13,444 nucleotides of DNA. Source: a virus (lineage: Duplodnaviria > Heunggongvirae > Uroviricota > Caudoviricetes). Each line of letters opens with the position of its first letter. Position 1 is the first letter of the stretch. The DNA lies in IMG/VR virus record IMGVR_UViG_2645727539_000014, positions 1-13,444 of that record, one strand, 5' to 3'. The notes beneath the pieces were generated by a model that saw nothing but the letters and a program-made list of their open reading frames with translations, had not been told where the DNA came from and did no database searches. This document shows, in pieces, positions 1 to 13,444 of this stretch. The position numbers and the translations under genes were made by a program.

Positions 1-1007
<1,007 letters not shown>

Positions 1008-1011
<4 letters not shown>

Positions 1012-1454
1012 TCGAAACCCTGCTGGATTTTTCGGGGCTGGAGGACATCAGCCGCGATTTGCAGCTTCTGAGTGGTGCGGAAAACAACCGGGTGTTGCGT
1101 GAGGCAACCCGCGCGGGGGCGAATGAACTGAAAGACGAAGTGGTGTCACGGGCACCGGTGCGCAGGGGAAAACTGCGCCGCAATGTGGTGGTCCTTTCCC
1201 GGCGTTCCCGCGATGGCGGGATGGAATCCGGTGTGCATATCCGTGGTGTTAATCCGGACACCGGCAACAGTGATAACACCATGAAGGCGGATAATCCCCG
1301 CAATGCCTTCTACTGGCGGTTTGTGGAAATGGGTACAGTGAATATGCCACCGCACCCGTTTGTGCGCCCGGCGTTTGATGTGCGCAGTGAACAGGCCGCC
1401 CGGGTGGCGATTGCGCGGATGAACCGGGCCATTGATGAGGTACTGAGACGATGA
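1008..1454 (+). CDS. HK97 gp10-like tail component (head-tail connector/neck protein)
   Basis: 148-aa ORF with strong RBS GGGAGGGG and ATGA overlap at both ends. The sequence (MIETLLDFSGLEDISRDL...NAFYWRFVEMGTVNMPPHPFVRPAF) resembles the HK97 gp10 family as recalled. Confidence 0.65.
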
Positions 1455-1795
1455 CGGAGGCAGATTTGTACCCACATCTGGCGCATCTTGCCGGCGGGCA
1501 GGTGTACCCGTATGTGGTCCCCCTGCTGGATGGCAGACCCTCTGTATCGTTACCGTGGGTGGTTTTCAGCCTGATTTCATCGGTATCTGCGGACGTGATG
1601 GGGGGGCAGGCAGAGTCATCGGTGTCGGTGCAGATTGACGTCTATGCGGTGACGCTCACACAGGCGCGTCAGATACGTCAGCAGGCCCGTGAGTCCATAA
1701 TGGCGCTGGCCCCGGAATCGGTCAGTGAAATGCAGAGCTATATTCCGGAAAACCGCTGTTACCGTGCAACCCTGGAGTTTCAGGTCACGGTGTGA
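1451..1795 (+). CDS. Tail completion/terminator-like protein (DUF3168-like) upstream of the major tail protein
   Basis: 114-aa ORF coupled to the upstream gene by an ATGA overlap, in the position conserved for the tail terminator/completion protein of siphovirus tail modules. Confidence 0.55.
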   Translation: MTEADLYPHLAHLAGGQVYPYVVPLLDGRPSVSLPWVVFSLISSVSADVMGGQAESSVSVQIDVYAVTLTQARQIRQQARESIMALAPESVSEMQSYIPENRCYRATLEFQVTV

Positions 1796-1824
1796 CGTTT
1801 TTCTTTTTTCTACAAAACCCATAC

Positions 1825-1846
1825 CCCGCCGCGTGCGGGTTTTTTA
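1825..1846 (+). terminator. Short GC hairpin plus T-run (intrinsic terminator/attenuator) between the tail-completion gene and the major tail gene
   Basis: CCCGC-CGCGT-GCGGG followed by TTTTTTATTAT, immediately upstream of the AGGAGG RBS of the major tail gene. Confidence 0.4.
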
Positions 1847-1861
1847 TTATCAGGAGGCAGA

Positions 1862-2575
1862 ATGTCTGCTTTGTATGAACGCTCACAGCTGACGCAGGTG
1901 ATGATTTCATCTACCCCGGCGACTGCTGAAACTATGGAGAAGGCGGAATATCTGCGTCTGGACTGTACCATCAAGGAGGTTCAGTTCACCGCCGGCCAGA
2001 AACAGGATATTGATGTGACCACGCTCTGCTCCACGGAGCAGGAGAACATCAACGGTCTGGGGGCGTCGTCCGAGATTTCCATGTCAGGCAACTTTTTTCT
2101 TAATCAGGCCCAGAACGCCCTGCGTGATGCCTATGATAATGACACGGTGTATGCGTTTAAGGTGCAGTTTCCGTCCGGTAAGGGCTTTAAGTTCCTGGCG
2201 GAAGTGCGTCAGCACACCTGGTCATCCGGTACCAACGGCGTGGTGGCTGCAACGTTCTCACTGCGTCTGAAAGGCAAACCGGTGTCCTATGTGGTACCGC
2301 TGGCGTTTGTGAAAAATCTGGATAAGACACTTACCGTGAATACCGGTGCGCTGCTGACAATGTCAGTCAGTGTCAACGGGGGAACGCCGCCTTATAAATA
2401 CGCCTGGAAGAAGGATGGTCAGCCGGTAGAGGGACAGACTACTGACACTTTCAGTAAAGCCAATACGCAGTCAGGTGATAAGGGGGCTTATACCTGCGAG
2501 GTAACGGATTCTGCAGAACAGCCGCAGAGCATTACCTCTGATGCGAGTACAGTAACGGTTAATGGTGCGGGCTGA
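1862..2575 (+). CDS. Major tail (tube) protein with C-terminal Ig-like domain
   Basis: 237-aa ORF with AGGAGG RBS 7 nt upstream, located before the chaperone pair. The C-terminal ~80 aa carry an Ig-like signature (PPYKYAWKKDGQPV...GDKGAYTCEVTD). Confidence 0.8.
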   Translation: MSALYERSQLTQVMISSTPATAETMEKAEYLRLDCTIKEVQFTAGQKQDIDVTTLCSTEQENINGLGASSEISMSGNFFLNQAQNALRDAYDNDTVYAFKVQFPSGKGFKFLAEVRQHTWSSGTNGVVAATFSLRLKGKPVSYVVPLAFVKNLDKTLTVNTGALLTMSVSVNGGTPPYKYAWKKDGQPVEGQTTDTFSKANTQSGDKGAYTCEVTDSAEQPQSITSDASTVTVNGAG

Positions 2576-2583
2576 TAAGGCTT

Positions 2584-2958
2584 ATGGCAAAAGATCTGAA
2601 AACACTGGCGCTGGCCAGACTGTCGGGGTTCCGTCATAAAACGGTGAAGGTGCCGGAATGGGGAAATGTCAGCGTGGTGCTGCGGGAGCCTTCGGCAGAG
2701 GCCTGGTATCTGTGGCAGGACGTGCTCAATGGTGATGGAGAGGATGACGATACCCTGTCGGTGGTGGCGAAAACCCGCCGTAACCTGGAAGCGGATGTGA
2801 CGCTGTTCTGCGATGTCCTGTGTGATACGGACCTGAAGCGGGTGTTCACTCCGGACGACCGTGAGCAGGTGCTGGCCGTCTATGGTCCGGTACATGCCCG
2901 GTTGCTGCGTCAGGCACTGGAACTGATCGCTGATGCAGAGTCGGCCAGAAAAAAGTAG
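2584..2958 (+). CDS. Tail assembly chaperone (lambda G-like)
   Basis: 124-aa acidic ORF directly upstream of the tape measure region, ending ...ESARKK with the slippery AAAAAAG in its last codons. Confidence 0.75.
   Translation: MAKDLKTLALARLSGFRHKTVKVPEWGNVSVVLREPSAEAWYLWQDVLNGDGEDDDTLSVVAKTRRNLEADVTLFCDVLCDTDLKRVFTPDDREQVLAVYGPVHARLLRQALELIADAESARKK
2949..2955 (+). other. Programmed -1 frameshift heptamer A_AAA_AAG producing the G-T fusion chaperone
   Basis: G frame reads AGA AAA AAG TAG. The -1 frame continues GTA GCC CGC CCG GAA ATT CGT TTT CTG ATG... into the 2982-3263 ORF. The frame arithmetic fits (2584 is 1 mod 3, 2982 is 0 mod 3). Confidence 0.7.
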
Positions 2959-3263
2959 CCCGCCCGGAAATTCGTTTTCTGATGCGACTTGCGCTCCGTC
3001 TGGGGCGCACCTTATCCGAACTGCGCCACAGCCTGAGTGCGAGCGAGGCGATGATGTGGATGGAGTTCGACAGGGTATCCCCGCTGGGTGATGAGCGCGG
3101 GGATATCCGTAATGCGCAGATCGTGAAAGCGGTTTTCGGGGCGCAGGGGATGAATGTTGCACTGAAGGACGCCATGCTCTGCTGGGGAGAGGATGAGGAT
3201 AAGCCGGAGGTGGATCCTTTTGCGGCTCTGGAAGATGCACTGTCATTCGCCGCAAAAAATTAA
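2955..3263 (+). CDS. T-like segment of the tail assembly chaperone, expressed as a G-T fusion via -1 frameshift
   Basis: Open in the -1 frame relative to G from the slippery site to the stop at 3261-3263. Same arrangement as lambda G/GT. Confidence 0.65.
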   Translation, partial: VARPEIRFLMRLALRLGRTLSELRHSLSASEAMMWMEFDRVSPLGDERGDIRNAQIVKAVFGAQGMNVALKDAMLCWGEDEDKPEVDPFAALEDALSFAAKN

Positions 3264-3326
3264 TATTGATTCCTTGTGGATTTATTAAAGTAACGTCGGA
3301 GGAAATTAACTGAACGGAGTCATTTT

Positions 3327-3740
3327 ATGAAAAAACTCATGCCGTTGATTTTCTCAGCAGTTTTTTTTCTGACGGGGTGTGCAACCATTGTCGGAGATAA
3401 AACGCAGACTGTTCAGGTAAACAGTAATCCAGCTGGCGCGGATTTTATTATTAAAGATGAGTCAGGGAAAACAATTTCTTCGGGCAAAACACCGCAGAAT
3501 GTAACACTTGAAAAATCTGACGGCAGTTACTTCGGGAAAAAGAGTTATCAGATCACATTCAGCAAAGAGAATTATCAGCCTGTAACGCTGCCGATCAAGG
3601 CATCGGCTAATGGATGGTACATTGGTGGTAACTTTGTCTTTGGCGGTATTGTTGGCTGGTTGCTTGTGGACCCATTCAATGGCGGTATGTATACGCTGAG
3701 TCCGGAAAGTCTGAACCCCGGACTGGTACCTGAAAGTTAA
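3327..3740 (+). CDS. Lipoprotein (moron) with PEGA-like beta-sandwich motif and Gly-rich hydrophobic C-terminal segment
   Basis: MKKLMPLIFSAVFFLTGC has a signal peptide and lipobox LTGC; Ala at +2 predicts outer-membrane sorting. The NPAGADFIIKDESGKTISSGKTPQNVTL...YQITFSKENYQPVT stretch is PEGA-like. The gene is AT-rich against GC-rich flanks and has GGAG 9 nt upstream of the ATG. Confidence 0.8.
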   Translation: MKKLMPLIFSAVFFLTGCATIVGDKTQTVQVNSNPAGADFIIKDESGKTISSGKTPQNVTLEKSDGSYFGKKSYQITFSKENYQPVTLPIKASANGWYIGGNFVFGGIVGWLLVDPFNGGMYTLSPESLNPGLVPES

Positions 3741-3760
3741 TCAATAATATGCTGATGAAT

Positions 3761-3788
3761 AAAACCTGCTTTGGCAGGTTTTTTTTCG
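3761..3788 (+). terminator. Rho-independent terminator downstream of the lipoprotein gene
   Basis: AAAACCTGC-TTTG-GCAGGTTTTTTTT: a 6-9 bp stem, 4-nt loop and T-run. It is flanked by A- and T-tracts, so it may act in both directions. Confidence 0.75.
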
Positions 3789-3803
3789 CCCGGAGAAAGG
3801 TTA

Positions 3804-6800
3804 ATGGCGACGTTACGTGAACTGATTATCAAAATTTCGGCAAATTCACAGTCATTCCAGTCGGAGATCCAGCGGGCTTCCCGCATGGGCAGTGAATATT
3901 ACCGGACCCTGCAGAATGGCGGGCGTCAGGCTGCCGCAGCAGCCAGGGAGCAGCGACGCGCCCTGGCAGAACTGAACAGCCAGTTGACGGACATTCGCGG
4001 TTCTGCTGTCGGAATGGCTGGCGCATTTGCCGGTGCCTTTGCCACCGGACACCTGATTTCACTGGCTGATGAGTGGAGTTCCGTGAATGCCCGTCTGAAA
4101 CAGGCGTCGCAGTCATCTGATGAATTTTCGTCATCACAGAAAGTGCTGATGGATATCAGCCAGCGGACAGGCACGGCATTTTCGGATAATGCGGCCCTGT
4201 TTGCCCGTTCGGCTGCCTCGATGCGTGAATATGGTTACAGTGCTGATGATGTGCTGAAGGTGACGGAGGCCATTTCGACAGGGCTGAAAATATCCGGTGC
4301 CAGTACGGCAGAGGCGGGTTCGGTGATCACCCAGTTCAGCCAGGCGCTGGCACAGGGTGTGTTGCGCGGTGAGGAATTTAATTCGGTCAATGAAAGTGGG
4401 GACCGGATCATTCGCGCACTGGCTGCAGGCATGGGCGTGGCCCGTAAAGATCTGAAGGCGATGGCGGACGATGGTCAACTGACGGCGGATAAAGTTGTGC
4501 CCGCGTTAATCAGCCAGTTGGGGGTATTGCGTGATGAATATGCTGCCATGCCGGAAACAGTCTCTGACGGGATCACAAAGGTGGAAAACGCCTTTATGGC
4601 CTGGGTGGGGGGCGCGAATGAAGCCAGCGGAGCGACGAAAACGCTCTCCGGTGTGCTGAACGGTGTTGCCGGTAATATTGATGCAGTGGCAACAGCAGCG
4701 GGGGCGCTGCTTACCGTCGGGGTGGCCCGGTACTTTGGCAATATGGTCGCAGGCGTGGGAAAGGCCACCACAGAGCTGATCGCGGCGAAGTCCGGGACGG
4801 TTGCCCTGGCAGCCGCACAGGCAGATGCGGCTGTTCAGGTGCAGCGTAAGGCGGCAGCTGACGCGCTGGCGGCCGAACGCGCCTGGCAACTGGCACAGGC
4901 TGAACTTGCACTTGCCAGAAATAGCAGTGCGGAGGCGCTGGCCACACAGAATGCCGTCGCAAAACGCCGGGCCATGATTGTGGCCAATGCTGAACTTGTG
5001 CAGTCGAATCAGGCAGTGGCGGCCTCGAGGAAGGCGCTGGAGAATGCCACGTCGGTTACAGGGATGCTGAAAAGTGGAGCTGCATCCCTGCTTTCTCTGG
5101 TCGGCGGGATACCCGGCTTACTGATGCTCGGGGCCGGTGCCTGGTACACGGTGTACCAGAATCAGGAACAGGCCAGGGAGTCTGCCCGTCAGTATGCATC
5201 GACGATTGATGAAATCCGGGCAAAGGTACCGGGAATGACCCTTCCTGAACTGGCTGATAATGAGGGTAAAACCCGCGAGGCACTGGAAGAGCAGAATCGT
5301 CTGATTGCTGAGCAGGAAAGTAAAGTCCGTGGACTGAAAACACAGATTGCTGACTATCAGCGCTGGCTGCAGGAAAATCCACAGGGTGGTTCAGGTGTGG
5401 AGATTATAACCCACGGCCTTGCGGAGGCAACTGGCAAACTGGCGGTTGAACAGTCACGACTGACACAGATGCAGGAAAAGGCGAAGTCTGTACAGGAAGC
5501 TCTGGCGTCACTGGAATACAACCGTGTGGCGAGGATACGCGAGGAGGCAGCAGAGCAGAACATAGCATACCAGGCATTGCTGCAGATGAATGTTCAGCAT
5601 ACGGAGTTCAACCGTTTGCTGGGGCTGGGGAATGAACTGCTTCAGCAGCGGCAGGGACTGGTGAATGTGCCGTTACGGCTGCCACAGGCCACCCTGGATG
5701 ATAAACAGCAGAGTGCCCTGACAAAAACAGAGCGTGAGCTGGCTCTGTCCAGACTGAAAGGGGAAGAAAAAGAGCGTGTCCGGCTGGGATATGCGGCGGA
5801 TGACCTCGGTTTTGTGGGGGATCCGTATCAGGAGGCGAGACAGCGTTATATCAGTAATGCCCTGGAAGCCTGGCGCAATAACGAGGAGAATAAACCCAAA
5901 TCACGGGGTGGAAAATCAGAGACGGAAAAAGCGGAAGGCAGTTTTTCCCGGCTGCTTAAGCAGCAGAAGGAGCAACTGGCACTGGCCGGTCAGAACACGG
6001 AGCTGGCGAAGCTGAAGTACCAGACAGCGCTGGGTGAGCTGAAAATCCTGACGGAGATACAGAAGCAGGAACTGCTGCGCAATGCGGCCCTGATTGACCA
6101 GCAAAAAATCCGGGAACAGTTGCGATCCCGGGAAGAGACCCTGAAAAATGATAATGCAGACGCAAGGGTATCAAATGAAGCCGAACTGCTGGGGTACGGG
6201 CAGGGGGAACGCGCCAGGGAACGCATGCGGGAGTTGCAGCAGATCCGCGACAGCTTCCGGCAAAAGGATTCGGACCTTCAGTCTCAGTATCAGACCGGGG
6301 ATATCAGTGAGGATTTTTACAGACAGGCTCTGGCACAGAATGCGCAGTATCTGAGTGAACGCCTTAAAGACCAGGAAACTTTTTATGCCGAATCGGATGC
6401 GCAACGCGCGGACTGGCAGAAAGGGTTACAGGAGGGGCTCAGTAACTGGGTGGATAATGCGTCCGATTACGCCTCACAGGCAGCACAGCTGGCGACAGAG
6501 GGGATCTCAGGACTGGTGAATAACATCACGGAGATGCTGAACGGGAACAAAGTGGAATGGCGCAGCTGGGCCTCGTCAATCCTGCAGGAAATATCAAAAG
6601 TCCTTATGAATGCCGCGATTGTCAACGGGATCAAGACGGCGGCAAACAGCATGTCCGGAGCGGGAGGATTTCTCGGCAGCATTGGTGACTGGCTTGGCGG
6701 GGCGGTGGCCAATGCAAAAGGCGGCGTGTATACCTCGGCAAACCTGAGTGCGTACAGCAACAGTATTGTGGACACGCCGACGTATTTTGCGTTTGCTAAA

Positions 6801-7070
6801 GGTGCCGGACTGATGGGGGAGGCCGGACCTGAAGCCATTATGCCACTGACCCGGGCGGCGGATGGCTCGCTGGGAGTACGCGCGGTGGGAAGTATGAACG
6901 GCAGTGCCGGTCTGGTGTATTCCCCGGTCTACCACATCGCCATTCAGAATGACGGGGTTAACGGACAGATAGGACCGGAGGCGGCAGGCAGTCTTGTGCA
7001 GCTGATTGACCAGCGGGTGCAGGCGGTGATGCTGTCCATGCGACGTGACGGGGGAATGTTGAGTGGCTGA
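3804..7070 (+). CDS. H: Tail tape measure protein (lambda H-like)
   Basis: About 1088 aa from ATG 3804 with RBS GAGAAAGG; the ORF-track start at 3771 is a TTG inside the terminator. It has a long Ala/Gln-rich coiled-coil centre, and its C-terminal region (...TPTYFAFAKGAGLMGEAGPEAIMPLTRAADGSLGVRAVG...) resembles the lambda H C-terminus as recalled. Confidence 0.9.
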   Translation: MATLRELIIKISANSQSFQSEIQRASRMGSEYYRTLQNGGRQAAAAAREQRRALAELNSQLTDIRGSAVGMAGAFAGAFATGHLISLADEWSSVNARLKQASQSSDEFSSSQKVLMDISQRTGTAFSDNAALFARSAASMREYGYSADDVLKVTEAISTGLKISGASTAEAGSVITQFSQALAQGVLRGEEFNSVNESGDRIIRALAAGMGVARKDLKAMADDGQLTADKVVPALISQLGVLRDEYAAMPETVSDGITKVENAFMAWVGGANEASGATKTLSGVLNGVAGNIDAVATAAGALLTVGVARYFGNMVAGVGKATTELIAAKSGTVALAAAQADAAVQVQRKAAADALAAERAWQLAQAELALARNSSAEALATQNAVAKRRAMIVANAELVQSNQAVAASRKALENATSVTGMLKSGAASLLSLVGGIPGLLMLGAGAWYTVYQNQEQARESARQYASTIDEIRAKVPGMTLPELADNEGKTREALEEQNRLIAEQESKVRGLKTQIADYQRWLQENPQGGSGVEIITHGLAEATGKLAVEQSRLTQMQEKAKSVQEALASLEYNRVARIREEAAEQNIAYQALLQMNVQHTEFNRLLGLGNELLQQRQGLVNVPLRLPQATLDDKQQSALTKTERELALSRLKGEEKERVRLGYAADDLGFVGDPYQEARQRYISNALEAWRNNEENKPKSRGGKSETEKAEGSFSRLLKQQKEQLALAGQNTELAKLKYQTALGELKILTEIQKQELLRNAALIDQQKIREQLRSREETLKNDNADARVSNEAELLGYGQGERARERMRELQQIRDSFRQKDSDLQSQYQTGDISEDFYRQALAQNAQYLSERLKDQETFYAESDAQRADWQKGLQEGLSNWVDNASDYASQAAQLATEGISGLVNNITEMLNGNKVEWRSWASSILQEISKVLMNAAIVNGIKTAANSMSGAGGFLGSIGDWLGGAVANAKGGVYTSANLSAYSNSIVDTPTYFAFAKGAGLMGEAGPEAIMPLTRAADGSLGVRAVGSMNGSAGLVYSPVYHIAIQNDGVNGQIGPEAAGSLVQLIDQRVQAVMLSMRRDGGMLSG

Positions 7071-7404
7071 GATAAAAACGCTGCATCTGGTCCCGCGTGA
7101 AGGGATGCAGGTGAGTGAAAAACCGTCGGTGGCGAGGGTACGGTTTGGTGACGGTTATGAACAGCGTCGGCCGACGGGCCTGAATGCCCAACTGAAGACG
7201 TTTCAGGCGGTGTTTCGGGTGACGGATGAACCAACCCGGCGCTGGCTGGATGAATTTTTATCGTGGCATGGTGGTTACCGTGCTTTTTTGTGGCGACCGC
7301 CGAAACATAACCGAACGGTAAAGGTTGTGTGCCGTGAATGGAGCGTTACGGATAATGCCCGGTACAGTGATTTCAGCTGTACGATTGAGCAGGTGGTGAA
7401 CTGA
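7063..7404 (+). CDS. M: Minor tail protein M
   Basis: Translation ...PSVARVRFGDGYEQRRPTGLNAQLKT...FLWRPP...EQVVN matches lambda gpM as recalled. The start is probably GTG 7063, overlapping the tape measure stop; ATG 7105 is the alternative. Confidence 0.85.
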   Translation: MAEIKTLHLVPREGMQVSEKPSVARVRFGDGYEQRRPTGLNAQLKTFQAVFRVTDEPTRRWLDEFLSWHGGYRAFLWRPPKHNRTVKVVCREWSVTDNARYSDFSCTIEQVVN

Positions 7405-8102
7405 TGCAGGATATTCATGAAGAAAGCCTGAACGAGTCGGTTAAAGCGGAGCAGTCTCCGCGGGTGGTGCTCTGGGAAATCGACCTGACGGTGCAGGGCG
7501 GTGAGCGGTATTTTTTCTGTAATGAACTGAATGAGAAAGGGGAGCCGGTCACCTGGCAGGGGCGGGAATATCAGGCATACCCGATTGAGGGCAGCGGTTT
7601 TGAGATGAACGGGAAGGGCAGCAGTGCCAGACCGTCGCTGACGGTGTCCAATCTGTTCGGTCTTGTCACCGGTATGGCGGAGGACCTGCAGAGTCTGGTG
7701 GGGGCCACGGTAGTCCGCCGTCGGGTGTATGCGCGTTTTCTGGATGCGGTGAACTTTGTGGCAGGCAATCCTGAGGCAGACCCGGAGCAGGAGCTGACGG
7801 ACCGGTGGGTGGTGGAGCAGATGTCAGAGCTGACGGCCATGACGGCCTCGTTTGTGCTGGCCACGCCGACGGAGACGGACGGGGCGCTGTTTCCCGGTCG
7901 CATTATGCTGGCGAACACCTGTATGTGGACCTACCGCTCTGATGAGTGTGGTTACACGGGTGGGGCAGTGGCGGATGAGTATGACCAGCCGACGCCCGAT
8001 ATCACAAAGGACAAATGCAGCAAGTGTCTGCGCGGGTGTGAGATGCGCAACAATGTCGGCAATTTTGGCGGTTTCCTTTCCATTAATAAACTTTCGCAGT
8101 AA
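7404..8102 (+). CDS. L: Minor tail protein L (tail tip complex)
   Basis: MQDIHEESLNE...VVLWEIDLT...GGERYFFCNE...GNFGGFLSINKLSQ closely matches lambda gpL as recalled. The ATG overlaps the M stop (TGATG). Confidence 0.9.
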   Translation: MQDIHEESLNESVKAEQSPRVVLWEIDLTVQGGERYFFCNELNEKGEPVTWQGREYQAYPIEGSGFEMNGKGSSARPSLTVSNLFGLVTGMAEDLQSLVGATVVRRRVYARFLDAVNFVAGNPEADPEQELTDRWVVEQMSELTAMTASFVLATPTETDGALFPGRIMLANTCMWTYRSDECGYTGGAVADEYDQPTPDITKDKCSKCLRGCEMRNNVGNFGGFLSINKLSQ

Positions 8103-8107
8103 ATCCA

Positions 8108-8851
8108 ATGACACAGACAGAATCAGCGATTCTGGCGCATGCCCGGCGGTGTGCGCCTGCGGAGTCGTGCGGCTTTGTGGTGAGAACGCCGGAGGGGGAG
8201 CGCTATATCCCTTGTGTGAATATCTCTGCAGAGCCGGAGGCGTATTTTCGTATTGCACCGGAAGACTGGCTGCGGGCAGAGATGCAGGGGGAGATTGTGG
8301 CACTGGTCCACAGTCATCCCGGTGGTCTGCCCTGGCTGAGCGAGGCAGACCGGCGACTGCAGATAAAAAGCGCACTGCCCTGGTGGCTGGTCTGCCGGGG
8401 TGACATTCACAAATTCCGCTGTGTGCCGCACCTGACCGGACGGCGCTTTGAGCACGGGGTGACGGACTGTTACACGCTGTTCCGGGATGCATACCATCTG
8501 GCGGGAATTGATATGCCGGATTTTGAGCGTGAGGATGACTGGTGGCGTAACGGTCAGAACCTTTACCTGGACAATATGGCGGTCACCGGCTTTTACCGGG
8601 TGCCCCTGTCCTCTGCACAGGCGGGCGATATCCTGCTGTGCTGCTTTGGCGCATCGGTGGCCAATCATGCCGCCATTTACTGCGGCAACGGTGAGCTGCT
8701 TCACCATCTGCCTGAACAACTGAGTAAACGGGAGAGGTATTCCGAAAAATGGCAACGACGAACGCATTCAGCCTGGCGTCACCGCCACTGGCACGTATCT
8801 GCCTTCACGGGGATTTACAACGATTTGGCCGCCGCCTCAGCCTGTATGTGA
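8108..8851 (+). CDS. K: Tail assembly protein K (MPN/JAMM plus NlpC/P60-like domains)
   Basis: The N-terminus MTQTESAILAHARRCAPAESCGFVV and the HSHPGGLPWLSEAD JAMM-like motif are lambda K-like, followed by a Cys/His NlpC/P60-like region. The ORF overlaps the I start by 103 nt. Confidence 0.85.
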   Translation: MTQTESAILAHARRCAPAESCGFVVRTPEGERYIPCVNISAEPEAYFRIAPEDWLRAEMQGEIVALVHSHPGGLPWLSEADRRLQIKSALPWWLVCRGDIHKFRCVPHLTGRRFEHGVTDCYTLFRDAYHLAGIDMPDFEREDDWWRNGQNLYLDNMAVTGFYRVPLSSAQAGDILLCCFGASVANHAAIYCGNGELLHHLPEQLSKRERYSEKWQRRTHSAWRHRHWHVSAFTGIYNDLAAASACM

Positions 8852-9429
8852 ACACGGCAGCGGAAGCCATCCGTGCCCTGTCGATGCAGATGCCTGGATT
8901 CCGCCGTCAGATGAACGAAGGCTGGTACCAGATACGTATTCGCGGTGAGGACACGGCACCGGAGGCGGTGTACGCCCGTCTTCACGAACAGCTGGGTGAG
9001 GGAACGATCATCCACATTGTGCCGCGACTGGCCGGGGCCGGAAAAGGTGGACTGCAGATTGTGCTGGGGGCGGCAGCCATCGTGGGCTCTTTCTTCACTG
9101 CCGGGGCATCAATGGCGTTATGGGGTTCAGCCCTGGCAGCCGGTGGTTTTTCTGCCACCACGATGCTGTTTTCACTGGGGGCCAGCATGATACTGGGTGG
9201 TGTGGCTCAGATGCTGGCCCCGAAGGCTAAAGTACCGGAGTACAAAAGCACGGATAACGGTAAACAGAACACGTACTTTTCGTCACTGGACAATATGATT
9301 GCCCAGGGTAACCCGATGCCGGTGCCTTACGGGGAAATGCTGGTTGGCTCCCGGCGAATCTCTCAGGACATCAGTACCCGTGATGAAGGCGGTGGCGGGA
9401 AGGTCGTGGTTATCGGGCGGCAGAGGTAA
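8749..9429 (+). CDS. I: Tail assembly protein I
   Basis: ...ARICLHGDLQRFGRRL...GGLQIVLGAAAIVGSFFTAG...NGKQNTYFSSLDNMIAQGN... matches lambda gpI as recalled. Confidence 0.85.
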   Translation: MATTNAFSLASPPLARICLHGDLQRFGRRLSLYVNTAAEAIRALSMQMPGFRRQMNEGWYQIRIRGEDTAPEAVYARLHEQLGEGTIIHIVPRLAGAGKGGLQIVLGAAAIVGSFFTAGASMALWGSALAAGGFSATTMLFSLGASMILGGVAQMLAPKAKVPEYKSTDNGKQNTYFSSLDNMIAQGNPMPVPYGEMLVGSRRISQDISTRDEGGGGKVVVIGRQR

Positions 9430-9469
9430 AAAGAATAAAAAAATCCCGCAGTGTTGCGGAGCTGCGGGA
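9428..9469 (-). terminator. Minus-strand-oriented intrinsic terminator in the I-J intergenic island
   Basis: Hairpin TCCCGCAG-(10 nt loop)-CTGCGGGA at 9444-9469. On the minus strand it is followed by TTTTTTTATTCTTTTT; on the plus strand there is no downstream U-run. Confidence 0.4.
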
Positions 9470-9599
9470 GAGTTACGAAGATTAACTATAGAGAATTATT
9501 CTTATGTCACGACAAAAAACATTAACGCAGAGAAATTATTAGTACCACAGTCAGTTTGTGAAAATGTGAAGATATTCAGAATTTTTATTCAGTGATGAT

Positions 9600-9630
9600 A
9601 CAGGCATCCTCCGGGATGCCTGTTGTTTTT
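9600..9630 (+). terminator. Plus-strand intrinsic terminator immediately upstream of J
   Basis: ACAGGCATCC-TCCG-GGATGCCTGT, a 10-bp perfect stem with 4-nt loop, followed by TGTTTTT. It lies about 35 nt upstream of the J start codon. Confidence 0.55.
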
Positions 9631-9664
9631 GTGCGTAACAGTTATCACAGTAAAGGGTGAGACA

Positions 9665-12600
9665 ATGGGCAAAGGTGGCGGCAAGGCGCACACGCCGGTT
9701 GAGGCAAAGGACAATCTTAAGTCCACGCAGATGATGAGCGTGATTGATGCCATTGGTGAAGGGCCGATTGAAGGTCCGGTGAAGGGACTGCAGAGTATTC
9801 TGGTGAACAAAACCCCGCTGACGGACACTGACGGCAATCCTGTGATACACGGTGTGACCGCGGTCTGGCGCGCCGGGGAGCAGGAGCAGACACCACCCGA
9901 AGGCTTTGAGTCCTCCGGGGCGGAAACCGCACTGGGCGTGGAAGTGACGAAGGCAAAGCCGGTGACGCGCACCATTACATCCGCGAACATTGACCGCCTG
10001 CGGGTCACCTTCGGGGTGCAGTCACTGGTGCAGACCACGTCAAAGGGTGACCGAAACCCGACATCCGTCCGCCTGCTGATTCAGTTACAGCGTAACGGTA
10101 ACTGGGTGACGGAAAAGGATGTCACCATTAACGGCAAGACCACCTCGCAGTTTCTGGCGTCGGTGATTCTGGATAATCTGCCTCCCCGTCCTTTTAACAT
10201 CCGGATGGTCCGGGAGACAGCGGACAGCACCTCGGACCAGCTGCAGAATAAGACGCTCTGGTCGTCATACACCGAAATCATCGATGTGAAACAGTGCTAC
10301 CCGAACACGGCGATTGTGGGGCTGCAGGTGGATGCGGAGCAGTTTGGCGGTCAGCAGATGACGGTGAACTACCATATCCGAGGTCGCATCATCCTGGTGC
10401 CGTCAAACTATGACCCGGAAAAACGCACTTACAGCGGCATCTGGGACGGCAGCCTGAAACCGGCATACAGCAACAACCCGGCCTGGTGCCTGTGGGACAT
10501 GCTGACTCACCCGCGCTACGGCATGGGAAAACGTCTGGGGGCGGCGGATGTGGACAAGTGGGCGCTGTATGCCATCGGGCAGTACTGCGACCAGACGGTC
10601 CCGGATGGTTTCGGGGGCACAGAGCCGCGGATGACCTTTAATGCGTACCTGTCACAACAGCGTAAGGCGTGGGACGTTCTCAGTGATTTCTGCTCGGCGA
10701 TGCGCTGTATGCCGGTATGGAACGGCCAGACGCTGACGTTCGTTCAGGACCGCCCGTCGGATGTGGTGTGGCCGTACACCAACTGCGATGTGGTGGTGGA
10801 TGATAACGGCGTGGGGTTTCGCTACAGCTTCAGCGCCCTGAAGGACCGCCACACGGCGGTGGAGGTGAATTACACCGACCCGCAGAACGGCTGGCAGACC
10901 TCCACGGAACTGGTGGAAGACCCGGAAGCCATACTGCGCTACGGGCGCAACCTGCTGAAGATGGATGCGTTCGGTTGCACCAGTCGCGGTCAGGCCCACC
11001 GTGCCGGGCTGTGGGTGATAAAGACCGGACTGCTGGAAACGCAGACGGTGGATTTCACGCTCGGGTCACAGGGGCTGCGTCACACCCCCGGTGACATCAT
11101 TGAAATCTGTGATAACGACTACGCCGGTACCATGACCGGCGGACGTGTCCTGTCCATCGATGCCGCCAGCCGCACCCTGACACTGGACCGTGAGGTGACC
11201 CTGCCGGAGACAGGTGCCGCCACGGTGAACCTGATTAACGGCAGCGGTAAGCCGGTGAGCGTGGCCATCACTGCACACCCCGCGCCGGACCGGATACAGG
11301 TCAGCACCCTGCCTGATGGTGTGGAGACATACGGTGTATGGGGACTCTCCCTGCCGTCACTGCGTCGTCGCCTGTTCCGCTGTGTTTCCATCCGGGAAAA
11401 CACGGACGGCACCTTTGCCATCACGGCGGTGCAGCACGTACCGGAAAAAGAAGCCATCGTGGATAACGGGGCGCACTTTGACGGCGACCAGAGCGGCACG
11501 GTGAACGGGGTCACGCCGCCAGCGGTGCAGCACCTGACCGCAGAAGTCACCGCAGACAGCGGGGAATATCAGGTGCTGGCGCGCTGGGACACGCCGAAGG
11601 TGGTGAAGGGGGTGAGTTTTATGCTTCGCCTGACCGTGGCCGCGGATGACGGCAGTGAGCGGCTGGTCAGCACGGCCCGGACGACGGAAACCACATACCG
11701 CTTCACGCAACTGGCGCTGGGGAACTACAGGCTGACAGTCCGGGCGGTAAATGCGTGGGGACAGCAGGGCGATCCGGCATCGGTATCGTTCCGGATTGCC
11801 GCACCGGCAGCGCCGTCACAGATTGAGCTGACGCCGGGCTATTTTCAGATAACTGCCACGCCGCATCTTGCGGTTTATGATCCGACGGTACAGTTTGAGT
11901 TCTGGTTCTCGGAAACGCGGATTACCGATATCAGGCAGGTTGAAACCACAGCCCGCTACCTTGGCACGGGGCTGTACTGGATAGCCGCCAGTATCAATAT
12001 CAAACCGGGCCATGATTATTACTTTTATATCCGCAGTGTGAACACCGTTGGCAAATCGGCATTCGTGGAGGCCGTCGGTCGGGCGAGCGATGATGCGGAA
12101 GGTTACCTGGATTTTTTCAAAGGCAAGATAACCGAATCCCATCTCGGCAAGGAGCTGCTGGAAAAAGTCGAGCTGACGGAGGATAACGCCAGCAAACTGG
12201 AGGAGTTTTCGAAAGAGTGGCAGGACGCTAACGATAAGTGGAATGCCATGTGGGGCGTCAAAATTGAGCAGACCAAAGACGGCAAACATTATGTCGCGGG
12301 TATTGGCCTCAGCATGGAGGACACGGAAGAAGGCAAGCTGAGCCAGTTTCTGGTTGCCGCTAACCGTATCGCGTTTATTGACCCGGCAAACGGGAATGAA
12401 ACGCCGATGTTTGTGGCGCAGGGCAATCAGATATTTATGAACGACGTGTTCCTGAAGCGCCTGACGGCCCCGACCATTACCAGTGGTGGAAATCCACCGG
12501 CATTTTCCCTGACGTCAGACGGAAAGCTGACCGCTAAAAATGCGGATATCAGTGGCAGTGTGAATGCGAACGCCGGGACGCTCAACAATGTCACGGTAAA

Positions 12601-13078
12601 TGAAAACTGTACGATTAAGGGCATGCTGGAGGCGACTCAGGTCAGAGGTGACTTCGTTAAAGCTGTATCCAAATCATTCCCGAAACAGGCTGGTACGTGG
12701 GGTAACACGGAAACACCAAACGGGACGGTTACAGTCACCATCAGTGATGATCATAACTTTGACCGTCAAATCATTATTCCGCCCATTATCTTTAACGGAA
12801 TAGCGTATAGCTATCCGGGAAGTGGTAATAACCCGGGAGGTACAAGTTACACGGGTTATGGTTTTGAAGTTCGCAAAAACGGTGTATTAATCGCATCCAG
12901 AGAAACTAAAGGGGCCATTCCCGGTAGTTACAGTGCAGTTATTGATATGTCTAGTGGTGGTGGTAGCGTCACTCTGGAGTTTAAGATTTTCCAGAAAGGC
13001 AATCAGGGGGCAGGCAATATCACCGACTGTACGGTGATTGTGACCAAAAAAGCGGCTTCCGGCATCAGTATTCGTTGA
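9665..13078 (+). CDS. J: Tail tip / central fibre host-specificity protein J, with a divergent C-terminal receptor-binding region
   Basis: N-terminus [39 protein letters not shown], and long stretches further in, match lambda J as recalled. About 1137 aa from ATG 9665 (RBS AAGGGTGAG); the ORF-track start at 9623 is a TTG inside the terminator. The last ~150 aa differ from lambda J. Confidence 0.95.
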
Positions 13079-13100
13079 AATATTTATAACCCCAATAAAT

Positions 13101-13126
13101 GGCGTCAGGAATGACGCCTTTTTTAT
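13101..13126 (+). terminator. Rho-independent terminator downstream of J
   Basis: GGCGTCA-GGAA-TGACGCC followed by TTTTTTATT. Confidence 0.6.
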
Positions 13127-13148
13127 TGCAGAAAAGCGAGAGGTAATT

Positions 13149-13444
13149 ATGCGTAAAGTTTGTGCAGCCATTTTGTCCGCAGCCATCTGTCTGTCCGTAT
13201 CCGGTGCGCCTGCATGGGCGTCTGAACATCAGTCCACACTGAGCGCGGGGTATCTTCATGCCCGGACGAACGCTCCCGGTAGCGATAATCTTAACGGGAT
13301 TAACGTGAAATACCGTTATGAATTTACGGACACGCTGGGGCTGGTGACGTCATTCAGCTATGCAGGAGACAAGAATCGCCAGCTTACCCGTTACAGCGAT
13401 ACCCGCTGGCATGAAGATTCCGTGCGTAACCGCTGGTTCAGCGT
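13149..13444 (+). CDS. lom: Lom/Ail/PagC/OmpX-family outer-membrane beta-barrel protein, 5' part only; continues beyond the window end
   Basis: [24 protein letters not shown] is a signal peptide with an AWA-S cleavage site. The following ...[10 protein letters not shown]...[24 protein letters not shown]... is typical of the first strands of Ail/Lom barrels. It sits immediately downstream of J as lom does in lambda, with a GAGAGG RBS. Confidence 0.8.

Follow-up and report, generated by a model that had tools for sequence, protein, structure and literature searches.

The 235-nt gap between the tail genes I and J (9430-9664) in a 13,444-nt stretch of caudoviricete virus DNA (IMG/VR record IMGVR_UViG_2645727539_000014, positions 1 to 13,444; hereafter the window) very probably carries a self-contained 'moron' that lies antisense to the late operon and encodes an Hfq-dependent small RNA (sRNA) of the PasB/EcOnc22-24 family. 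A first-pass annotation of the sequence had suggested that this gap might encode a small RNA or an antisense pair, be the remnant of a mobile insertion, or act as a checkpoint controlling J through antitermination. The first of these was borne out by the finding of a minus-strand sRNA gene homologous to PasB of enteropathogenic Escherichia coli (EPEC) and to EcOnc22-24 of enterohaemorrhagic E. coli (EHEC). The family itself has already been detected experimentally, named and, in 2026, surveyed; the window holds a divergent, uncharacterised allele of it.

Homologous small RNAs in EPEC and EHEC

PasB is an 83-nt sRNA from prophage PP6 of EPEC O127:H6 E2348/69, encoded on the minus strand at 1466343-1466261 (Pearl Mizrahi et al. 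2021, Table S6, PMC8550237) and placed between E2348C_1436 and E2348C_1437 (PMC8550237). In the genome record these two genes are I, which ends at 1466255, and J, which starts at 1466496. The Northern probe published for PasB, AATCCCGCAGTGATCGCGGAGCT (PMC8550237), corresponds to the I-proximal hairpin read on the plus strand, and the window departs from it only in the loop; the whole gap of the window could be aligned end to end with the E2348/69 gap. Expression of pasB reached baseMean values of 482 and 1082 in two growth conditions, with higher levels in lysogeny broth (LB) than in Dulbecco's modified Eagle medium (DMEM), and the flanking genes I and J were near-silent at 5 and 15 (PMC8550237). 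Deletion of hfq changed pasB levels by log2 fold changes of -6.8 and -2.4, and ligation and sequencing of interacting RNAs (RIL-seq) recovered 37 interactions of PasB, 30 of them with coding sequences (CDS) or 5' untranslated regions (5'UTR) (PMC8550237). The window unit resembles PasB in its I-J position, its strand opposite to the late operon, its terminator hairpin with a U7 tail, the motif just upstream of the terminator, the position of the -10 box and the block upstream of the promoter. It differs in the 5' two-thirds of the RNA, which belong to another sequence type, and in its -10 box, AATAAT where PasB has TATAAT; expression and Hfq dependence were established for the E2348/69 copy.

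EcOnc22, EcOnc23 and EcOnc24 were reported as Hfq peaks from cross-linking followed by cDNA analysis (CRAC) in prophages Sp15, Sp14 and Sp11 of O157:H7 Sakai (Tree et al. 2014, Table S2, PMC4104026), with a Northern band of ~85 nt that was destabilised in an hfq deletion (PMC4104026). They correspond to three Sakai homologues of the present unit that are identical to one another. All three peaks fell inside 240-nt I-J gaps, on the strand opposite to the late genes, whatever coordinate offset was used. Coordinates in Table S2 refer to an older genome version and were recalibrated to NC_002695.2, which at 1.94 Mb requires a shift of +137 to +146 nt, as calibrated on AgvB (positioned by Rfam). 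At 3.49 Mb, EcOnc06/STnc100 allowed a shift of 99-227, and an STnc100 match near stx1 did not narrow the shift. Once shifted, the EcOnc22 peak covered the terminator hairpin and ~40 nt upstream, and on this mapping it would represent the RNA equivalent to PasB. With the EcOnc22 coordinates left uncorrected, the peak would lie opposite the plus-strand hairpin ahead of J; the calibration on AgvB and STnc100/EcOnc06 shifts it onto the sRNA. The window unit shares with EcOnc22-24 the I-J gap, the antisense strand and the architecture of the unit, which in Sakai produces Hfq-crosslinked RNAs of ~85 nt with Hfq-dependent stability; it differs in sequence (65% identity over the RNA), and the exact placement of the Sakai RNAs depends on the calibration. 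A 2021 review lists the EcOnc22 target as unknown, and the papers on PasB draw no connection between PasB and EcOnc22-24 (PMC8550237; 10.64898/2026.05.13.724894).

Family membership of the window allele

I-J junctions were gathered from viral contigs in two ways, by similarity to J and by the terminator pattern alone, and 66 unique units were extracted and aligned. I then built a covariance model from 44 units that were less than 78% identical to the window RNA, with the window's own subtype excluded. This model matched the window at 9437-9529 on the minus strand over its full length (81.3 bits, E 6.3e-14); it was the only strong match, the runner-up scoring 12.8 bits. Identity of the window RNA was 69-70% to E2348/69-type PasB and 65% to the Sakai type, and judged by its sequence the window allele is a divergent member of the PasB/EcOnc22-24 family.

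The gap sequence matched 149 phage records, mostly of Stx1- and Stx2-converting phages; of 5426 complete E. coli genomes, 1695 also had it, O55:H7 RM12579 and others at 100% identity. Its neighbours were in every case a gene annotated as tail assembly protein and J, and the sequence itself was unannotated in the RefSeq and phage records inspected. Among the 173 loci that bear the unit, 155 had I upstream and J downstream and 8 more were cut by a contig end. The intergenic sequence is accordingly conserved, and discrete transcripts have been published for its homologues; conservation devoid of discrete transcripts, which the first-pass annotation had named as evidence against its proposal, is not what was found. 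A scan of genome contigs returned 4 loci with the unit. Two short contigs (L089 and L091) that are titled Streptomyces flavalbus and Clostridiales metagenome-assembled genome (MAG) carried a PasB unit together with a 95-98% identical E. coli-type J, and most likely represent contamination or mis-binned E. coli prophage DNA.

Other known RNAs were tried as candidates and rejected. AgvB and AsxR (RF02702, RF02703) gave no match within 9380-9720, neither at the gathering threshold nor at E up to 10, and are sited at the PR' moron; the same search recovered AgvB at the Sakai loci as a control. PasA, PasC and PasD are located by the Q/holin region. Weak Rfam matches to Arrc14, BTnc201 and snoRNAs (E >1) fit only the generic shape of a terminator.

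Organisation of the minus-strand gene

The predicted primary transcript runs from 9528 to 9437 on the minus strand (~92 nt), in agreement with the covariance-model match and with alignment to PasB and the Sakai copy. It would be driven by a sigma-70-type promoter at 9535-9562, in which the -10 box AATAAT (9540-9535) is separated by 16 nt from a -35-like TTCACA (9562-9557), with 10/12 matches; the promoter of the E2348/69 copy reads TTCACA, 16 nt, TATAAT (11/12). This promoter, which the first-pass annotation had missed, sits between the two hairpins of the gap and is aimed at the minus-strand terminator ~60-90 nt off, so that each hairpin belongs to a unit of its own. Within the -10 box A2, T3, A5 and T6 were conserved, and the -35 region (~9561-9555) was poorly conserved at 0.65, where conservation is given here and below as the mean majority fraction over the 66 unique aligned units.

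Seven nt downstream of the -10 box lies GCGUUA (9523-9528, minus strand), with which the primary transcript is predicted to begin and which was near-invariant (0.93); going by the promoter, transcription probably starts near G9528. The body of the sRNA (about 9487-9522), including a moderately conserved U-run at 9519-9514, was variable (0.50) and came in several discrete, subtype-specific sequence types. It is followed immediately 5' of the terminator by the single-stranded motif GUUAAUCUUC (9486-9477; 0.90), a candidate seed whose location agrees with the putative PasB seed proposed 'just upstream of the terminator' by Zhu, Shabalina & Storz (10.64898/2026.05.13.724894). A poorly kept linker (9476-9470; 0.51) leads into the intrinsic terminator at 9437-9469, which consists of an 8-bp stem (9469-9462 / 9451-9444), a 10-nt loop (9461-9452) and a U7 tail (9443-9437), and which confirms the minus-oriented terminator that had been noticed beside the I stop. 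Its arms were conserved at 0.92 (9469-9462) and 0.99 (9451-9444) and its U-tail at 0.98; the loop varied freely (0.37), and the helix was paired in 93.5% of cells across the 66 unique homologues. A U-tract of at least 4 is used as an sRNA criterion for RIL-seq, and PasB has 7 (PMC8550237), which is also the length of the tail found here. Keeping the promoter, a short single-stranded motif and the terminator while the rest varies is, to judge from the alignment, the pattern of a base-pairing sRNA gene.

No conserved open reading frame (ORF) was found in the gap. The short plus-strand ORF that the first-pass annotation had pointed to, with its ATG at 9504, lacks this ATG in Sakai-type and 'type 2' alleles, in line with the earlier view that no convincing ORF lies between the hairpins.

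A conserved block upstream of the promoter

Upstream of the promoter lies a 30-nt block (9561-9590, minus strand) that reads AAATGTGAAGATATTCAGAATTT on the plus strand and was conserved at 0.94. It contains an invariant CRP-like dyad, on the plus strand TGTGA (9565-9569), N6 and TCAGA (9576-9580), and this pattern occurs once in the window against 0.01 expected occurrences. The block was always positioned 24 nt from the -10 box and was also present in the internal units of the tandem arrays described below, and it is therefore part of the sRNA gene and not merely linked to J.

The combination of a conserved block with a degenerate -35 region suggests that the promoter is activator-dependent, and the higher expression of pasB in glucose-free LB would also fit such a promoter. 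Whether CRP is the activator is speculative, if possible. By the spacing rule reportedly set out by Gaston and co-workers in 1990, the dyad TGTGA-N6-TCACA of a class II CRP promoter is centred at about -41.5, or ~29.5 bp upstream as counted from the -10 box's first base. This spacing was not matched in the present family: in essentially all units the centre of the dyad lay 32.5 bp from the -10 box, at about -44.5, which is 3 bp farther than in canonical class II CRP promoters, and one half-site was off consensus (TCAGA vs TCACA). Since the dyad is 3 bp too far from the -10 box, the CRP idea was counted as unproven.

Proposed mode of action

In the mechanism proposed here, the sigma-70 promoter (-10 at 9540-9535) would initiate transcription, probably at G9528, and RNA synthesis would end at the intrinsic terminator next to the stop codon of I, with 3' ends at 9437-9443. 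The product would be an RNA of ~80-90 nt with a U7 tail suited to Hfq, and Hfq would be expected to bind the U-tail and the AU-rich body of the window allele. By analogy with its homologues, the RNA would be made in the lysogen while the late operon is silent, would be stabilised by Hfq, and would be found ligated to dozens of mRNAs. Its most likely activity is base pairing in trans through GUUAAUCUUC with host or prophage mRNAs. Expression may depend on an activator, which speculatively could be CRP.

Several observations weigh against this reading. The allele is just 69-70% (E2348/69) and 65% (Sakai) identical to the characterised copies over the RNA, and transcripts are known from homologues alone. 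The promoter predicts a start 15 nt upstream of the PasB 5' end that was reported from RNA-seq coverage; this reported end maps to ~9513 in the window and would give an RNA of ~77 nt here. This discrepancy could reflect 5' processing or falling read coverage. Covariation in the terminator helix was almost nil because the stem is nearly invariant, which renders the test uninformative. Beyond the terminator, predicted secondary structure was not conserved, RNAalifold on the whole unit gave nothing credible, and the fold z-score was modest at -1.6 to -2.3. No Rfam family was found in the gap, either at gathering or at permissive thresholds (E up to 10; 9380-9720). The EcOnc22 link rests on coordinate calibration between genome versions and not on a published sequence, and no PasB target or phenotype has been demonstrated in the literature (PMC8550237; 10.64898/2026.05.13.724894).

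Regulation in cis as an alternative

The same minus-strand RNA might be a cis-antisense regulator, which would pair with the I-J segment of the late mRNA, provoke cleavage by RNase III or RNase E, and so uncouple or silence expression of J, together with the downstream genes lom and stf, that arises from leaky transcription of the late operon. Lambda OOP RNA acts on cII in this manner. The RNA is indeed fully complementary to ~90 nt of the late transcript right after the I stop, its I-J position is essentially invariant, and the seed motif has no other match in the tail genes of the window. I nevertheless consider cis regulation an improbable main role. The RNA overlaps neither coding sequences nor the ribosome-binding site of J, which is >120 nt away, and the EPEC copy was found joined on Hfq to 37 partners, of which 30 were CDS or 5'UTR regions at other genomic sites, under conditions in which I and J were barely transcribed. 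Moreover, conservation of the RNA is lowest in the body, where pairing in cis would take place, and it is a short motif that is conserved, as would be the case for a seed acting in trans. Finally, the unit has lost its promoter in phages with a sodC insertion, and these phages persist. Pairing in cis with the late mRNA might be an additional function during induction.

The plus-strand hairpin ahead of J

The strong plus-oriented terminator that had been placed about 35 nt before J was recovered as a terminator-like hairpin at 9600-9631 on the plus strand, with a 10-bp stem (9600-9609 / 9614-9623), a 4-nt loop and then TGTTTTTG, 34 nt before J. It folded at -20 kcal/mol (z = -4.8), and 0/200 shuffles were as good. 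The hairpin accompanied only the J-proximal unit; internal ones in tandem arrays lacked it. Among its alleles a single pair covaried (T:A <-> C:G), with both intermediates also occurring.

Other junctions carry different hairpins at this spot. In class B, the most frequent type of gap (336-343 nt), an unrelated, stronger hairpin takes its place. In such a gap (e.g. L029 1021-1200), ~180 nt of unrelated sequence stand in the place of the hairpin and contain CCCCGGUAUC-UGCU-GAUACCGGGG (z = -5.4), which is terminator-like in both directions; a further minus-strand promoter-like site adjoins J, and a second small transcription unit in class B gaps is possible. The I-J spacer of lambda (L213, NC_001416 15445-15504) has a GC hairpin, AAACCGCC-UGCG-GGCGGUUU followed by UGUCAUUU, ~20 nt before J, which was missed by the simple terminator scan and shown by folding, and which is an unrelated counterpart of the 9600-9623 hairpin. 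In class C gaps, which harbour sodC, the ~650 nt directly ahead of J contained no terminator-like hairpin; the sole hairpin of these gaps is the sodC terminator, ~170 nt past the I stop and without a plus-strand T-run. The plus-strand hairpin thus appears to be separate from the sRNA gene, a recurrent feature of the I-J junction, with the sRNA unit inserted upstream of it. Its probable substrate is late-operon RNA, on which it would serve as a terminator or insulator in the absence of Q, or else stabilise the 3' end of the message upstream.

This hairpin is the basis of the checkpoint explanation, by which a plus-strand terminator would restrict transcription of J and downstream genes to Q-modified RNA polymerase, the minus-strand features being incidental. 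Its strength (z = -4.8, with a T-run) speaks for such a role, and the unrelated T-run hairpins before J in lambda and in class B suggest selection at this spot. As the main explanation for the gap it is quite unlikely. The hairpin needs ~35 nt and leaves the other 170 nt, with their conserved promoter, sRNA body and terminator, unexplained; lambda has a non-homologous hairpin before J, and the class C gaps have no terminator-like hairpin in that stretch of ~650 nt. The single covarying pair, with both intermediates, is compatible with recombination between two alleles, and termination at the hairpin is a prediction from its sequence. The suggestion of an antisense pair found no support either. 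No plus-strand promoter passed the scan, no plus-strand sRNA ending at 9600-9623 was found, and no plus-strand intergenic entry was present among the EPEC table entries listed; in addition, the internal tandem units do without the plus-strand hairpin.

Insertion at the I-J junction

The I-J spacer of lambda measures 60 nt and has no sRNA unit, which marks the sRNA unit as a moron-like insertion. It is absent at the lambda junction, has its own promoter and terminator, and has a GC content of 0.37 compared with ~0.58 in its flanks. The part of the first-pass annotation that proposed a mobile insertion consequently stands, whereas 'remnant' does not describe a live and conserved gene. That the gap is an inert remnant, or that the short plus-strand ORF (ATG 9504) encodes a peptide, is scarcely credible: AT-rich composition and mosaic alleles do indicate a horizontal origin and the spacers of tandem arrays bear scars of the I 3' end, but functional elements were selectively kept over 66 diverged units while neighbouring positions vary, homologues are abundantly expressed, and the ATG of the small ORF is missing from other alleles.

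Tandem arrays of three or four PasB-like units were seen at the I-J junction of some phages (L148 319-1200, L137 4417-5042 and L142 96-705). Every unit had its own upstream block, -10 box and terminator, and one of them used another terminator stem (CUCCCGU/ACGGGAG). The units were separated by ~60-nt spacers that resemble remnants of the I 3' end, and these scars suggest unequal recombination. At L021, L054 and related loci (class C, gaps of 848-852 nt), a minus-strand sodC moron encoding a Cu,Zn superoxide dismutase occupies the I-J site. Homology to the window ends there at ~9533, right before the -10 box, and the sRNA body and terminator therefore persist without a promoter, downstream of the sodC terminator.

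From these variants a wider picture can be drawn, which I put forward tentatively and regard as doubtful: the I-J junction may be a recombination-prone cassette site for a single modular sRNA family with a fixed, activator-type promoter block, seed and terminator, in which at least five types of the 5' body would be swapped and units can be stacked up to four or displaced by sodC.

Comparison with known phage elements

The moron concept goes back to Juhala et al. (2000, as cited in PMC4104026). Like lom, bor and sodC, the unit described here is an autonomous promoter-gene-terminator unit of atypical composition separating genes that are neighbours in lambda, and its homologue is expressed in the lysogen. 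In other phages sodC even uses the same I-J site. The cargo of these morons is a protein, in contrast to the non-coding RNA of the present unit.

AgvB and AsxR are likewise Hfq-binding sRNAs from lambdoid prophages of pathogenic E. coli that lie antisense to the late operon and combine a conserved 3' module with a variable 5' region. They differ in their locus downstream of Q/PR' in the same prophages, in their length of 51-60 nt and in the lack of any sequence or Rfam match to the unit. Furthermore, they are sponges of core sRNAs, and there is no such evidence for PasB.

Lambda OOP RNA is a 77-nt RNA antisense to the 3' end of cII. It resembles the window sRNA as a short phage RNA that has its own promoter and intrinsic terminator and is transcribed convergently to a phage operon. 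OOP reaches into the coding sequence that it controls, whereas the sRNA here overlaps intercistronic sequence only and has homologues with many partners in trans.

Implications

For annotation, a known family gains an ordinary member here, not a new mechanism. About 1/3 of complete E. coli genomes carry this unlabelled, experimentally supported sRNA gene inside the tail operon, and near-identical BLAST variants greatly understate the diversity of the family. Linking PasB of EPEC, EcOnc22-24 of EHEC and the divergent allele joins two literatures. This link, the modular diversity and the tandem arrays of up to four units are modest additions of the present analysis, and equally modest are the findings that sodC displaces the promoter, that a dyad upstream of the promoter is conserved and that a hairpin recurs before J, lambda included. 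The conserved seed and upstream block offer handles for finding targets and the regulator. If the dyad truly is a site for CRP or another host factor, prophages would wire a nutrient-sensing regulator to diversifying riboregulators.

Flanking genes and other features of the window

The window is the tail-gene section of a lambdoid E. coli prophage's late operon, with K (8108-8851), I (8749-9429) and J (9665-13078) in this order on the plus strand according to Pfam and the ORF list. The left flank of the gap is the tail assembly gene I (Pfam Lambda_tail_I, E 2.9e-15), whose stop codon is TAA at 9427-9429. The right flank is J, the tip attachment and host specificity gene, with seven gpJ domains in Pfam, including FNIII-A_GpJ, Ig_J, Phage-tail_3, Phage_Tail_Tip and Ig_GpJ_C; its start codon ATG is at 9665 and not at 9666. 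These borders agree with the AT-rich gap of 235 nt described at the outset, as does a GC content of 0.37 at 9400-9599 compared with 0.54-0.62 in the flanks. Terminator-like sites numbered 3, against 0.8 +/- 0.9 expected by chance, and there were 2 overlapping promoter-like sites, against 0.6 +/- 0.9.

At the other end of the window, the only Rfam match at gathering level was isrC (RF01387, 150 bits) at 467-589 on the minus strand. It falls within an ORF at 277-621 on the same strand that carries Pfam HTH_Tnp_1 transposase domains and is presumably the orfA of an insertion sequence (IS) of the IS3 family. The leading ~640 nt of the window thus resemble an IS-element terminus, and isrC appears to have matched transposase coding sequence.

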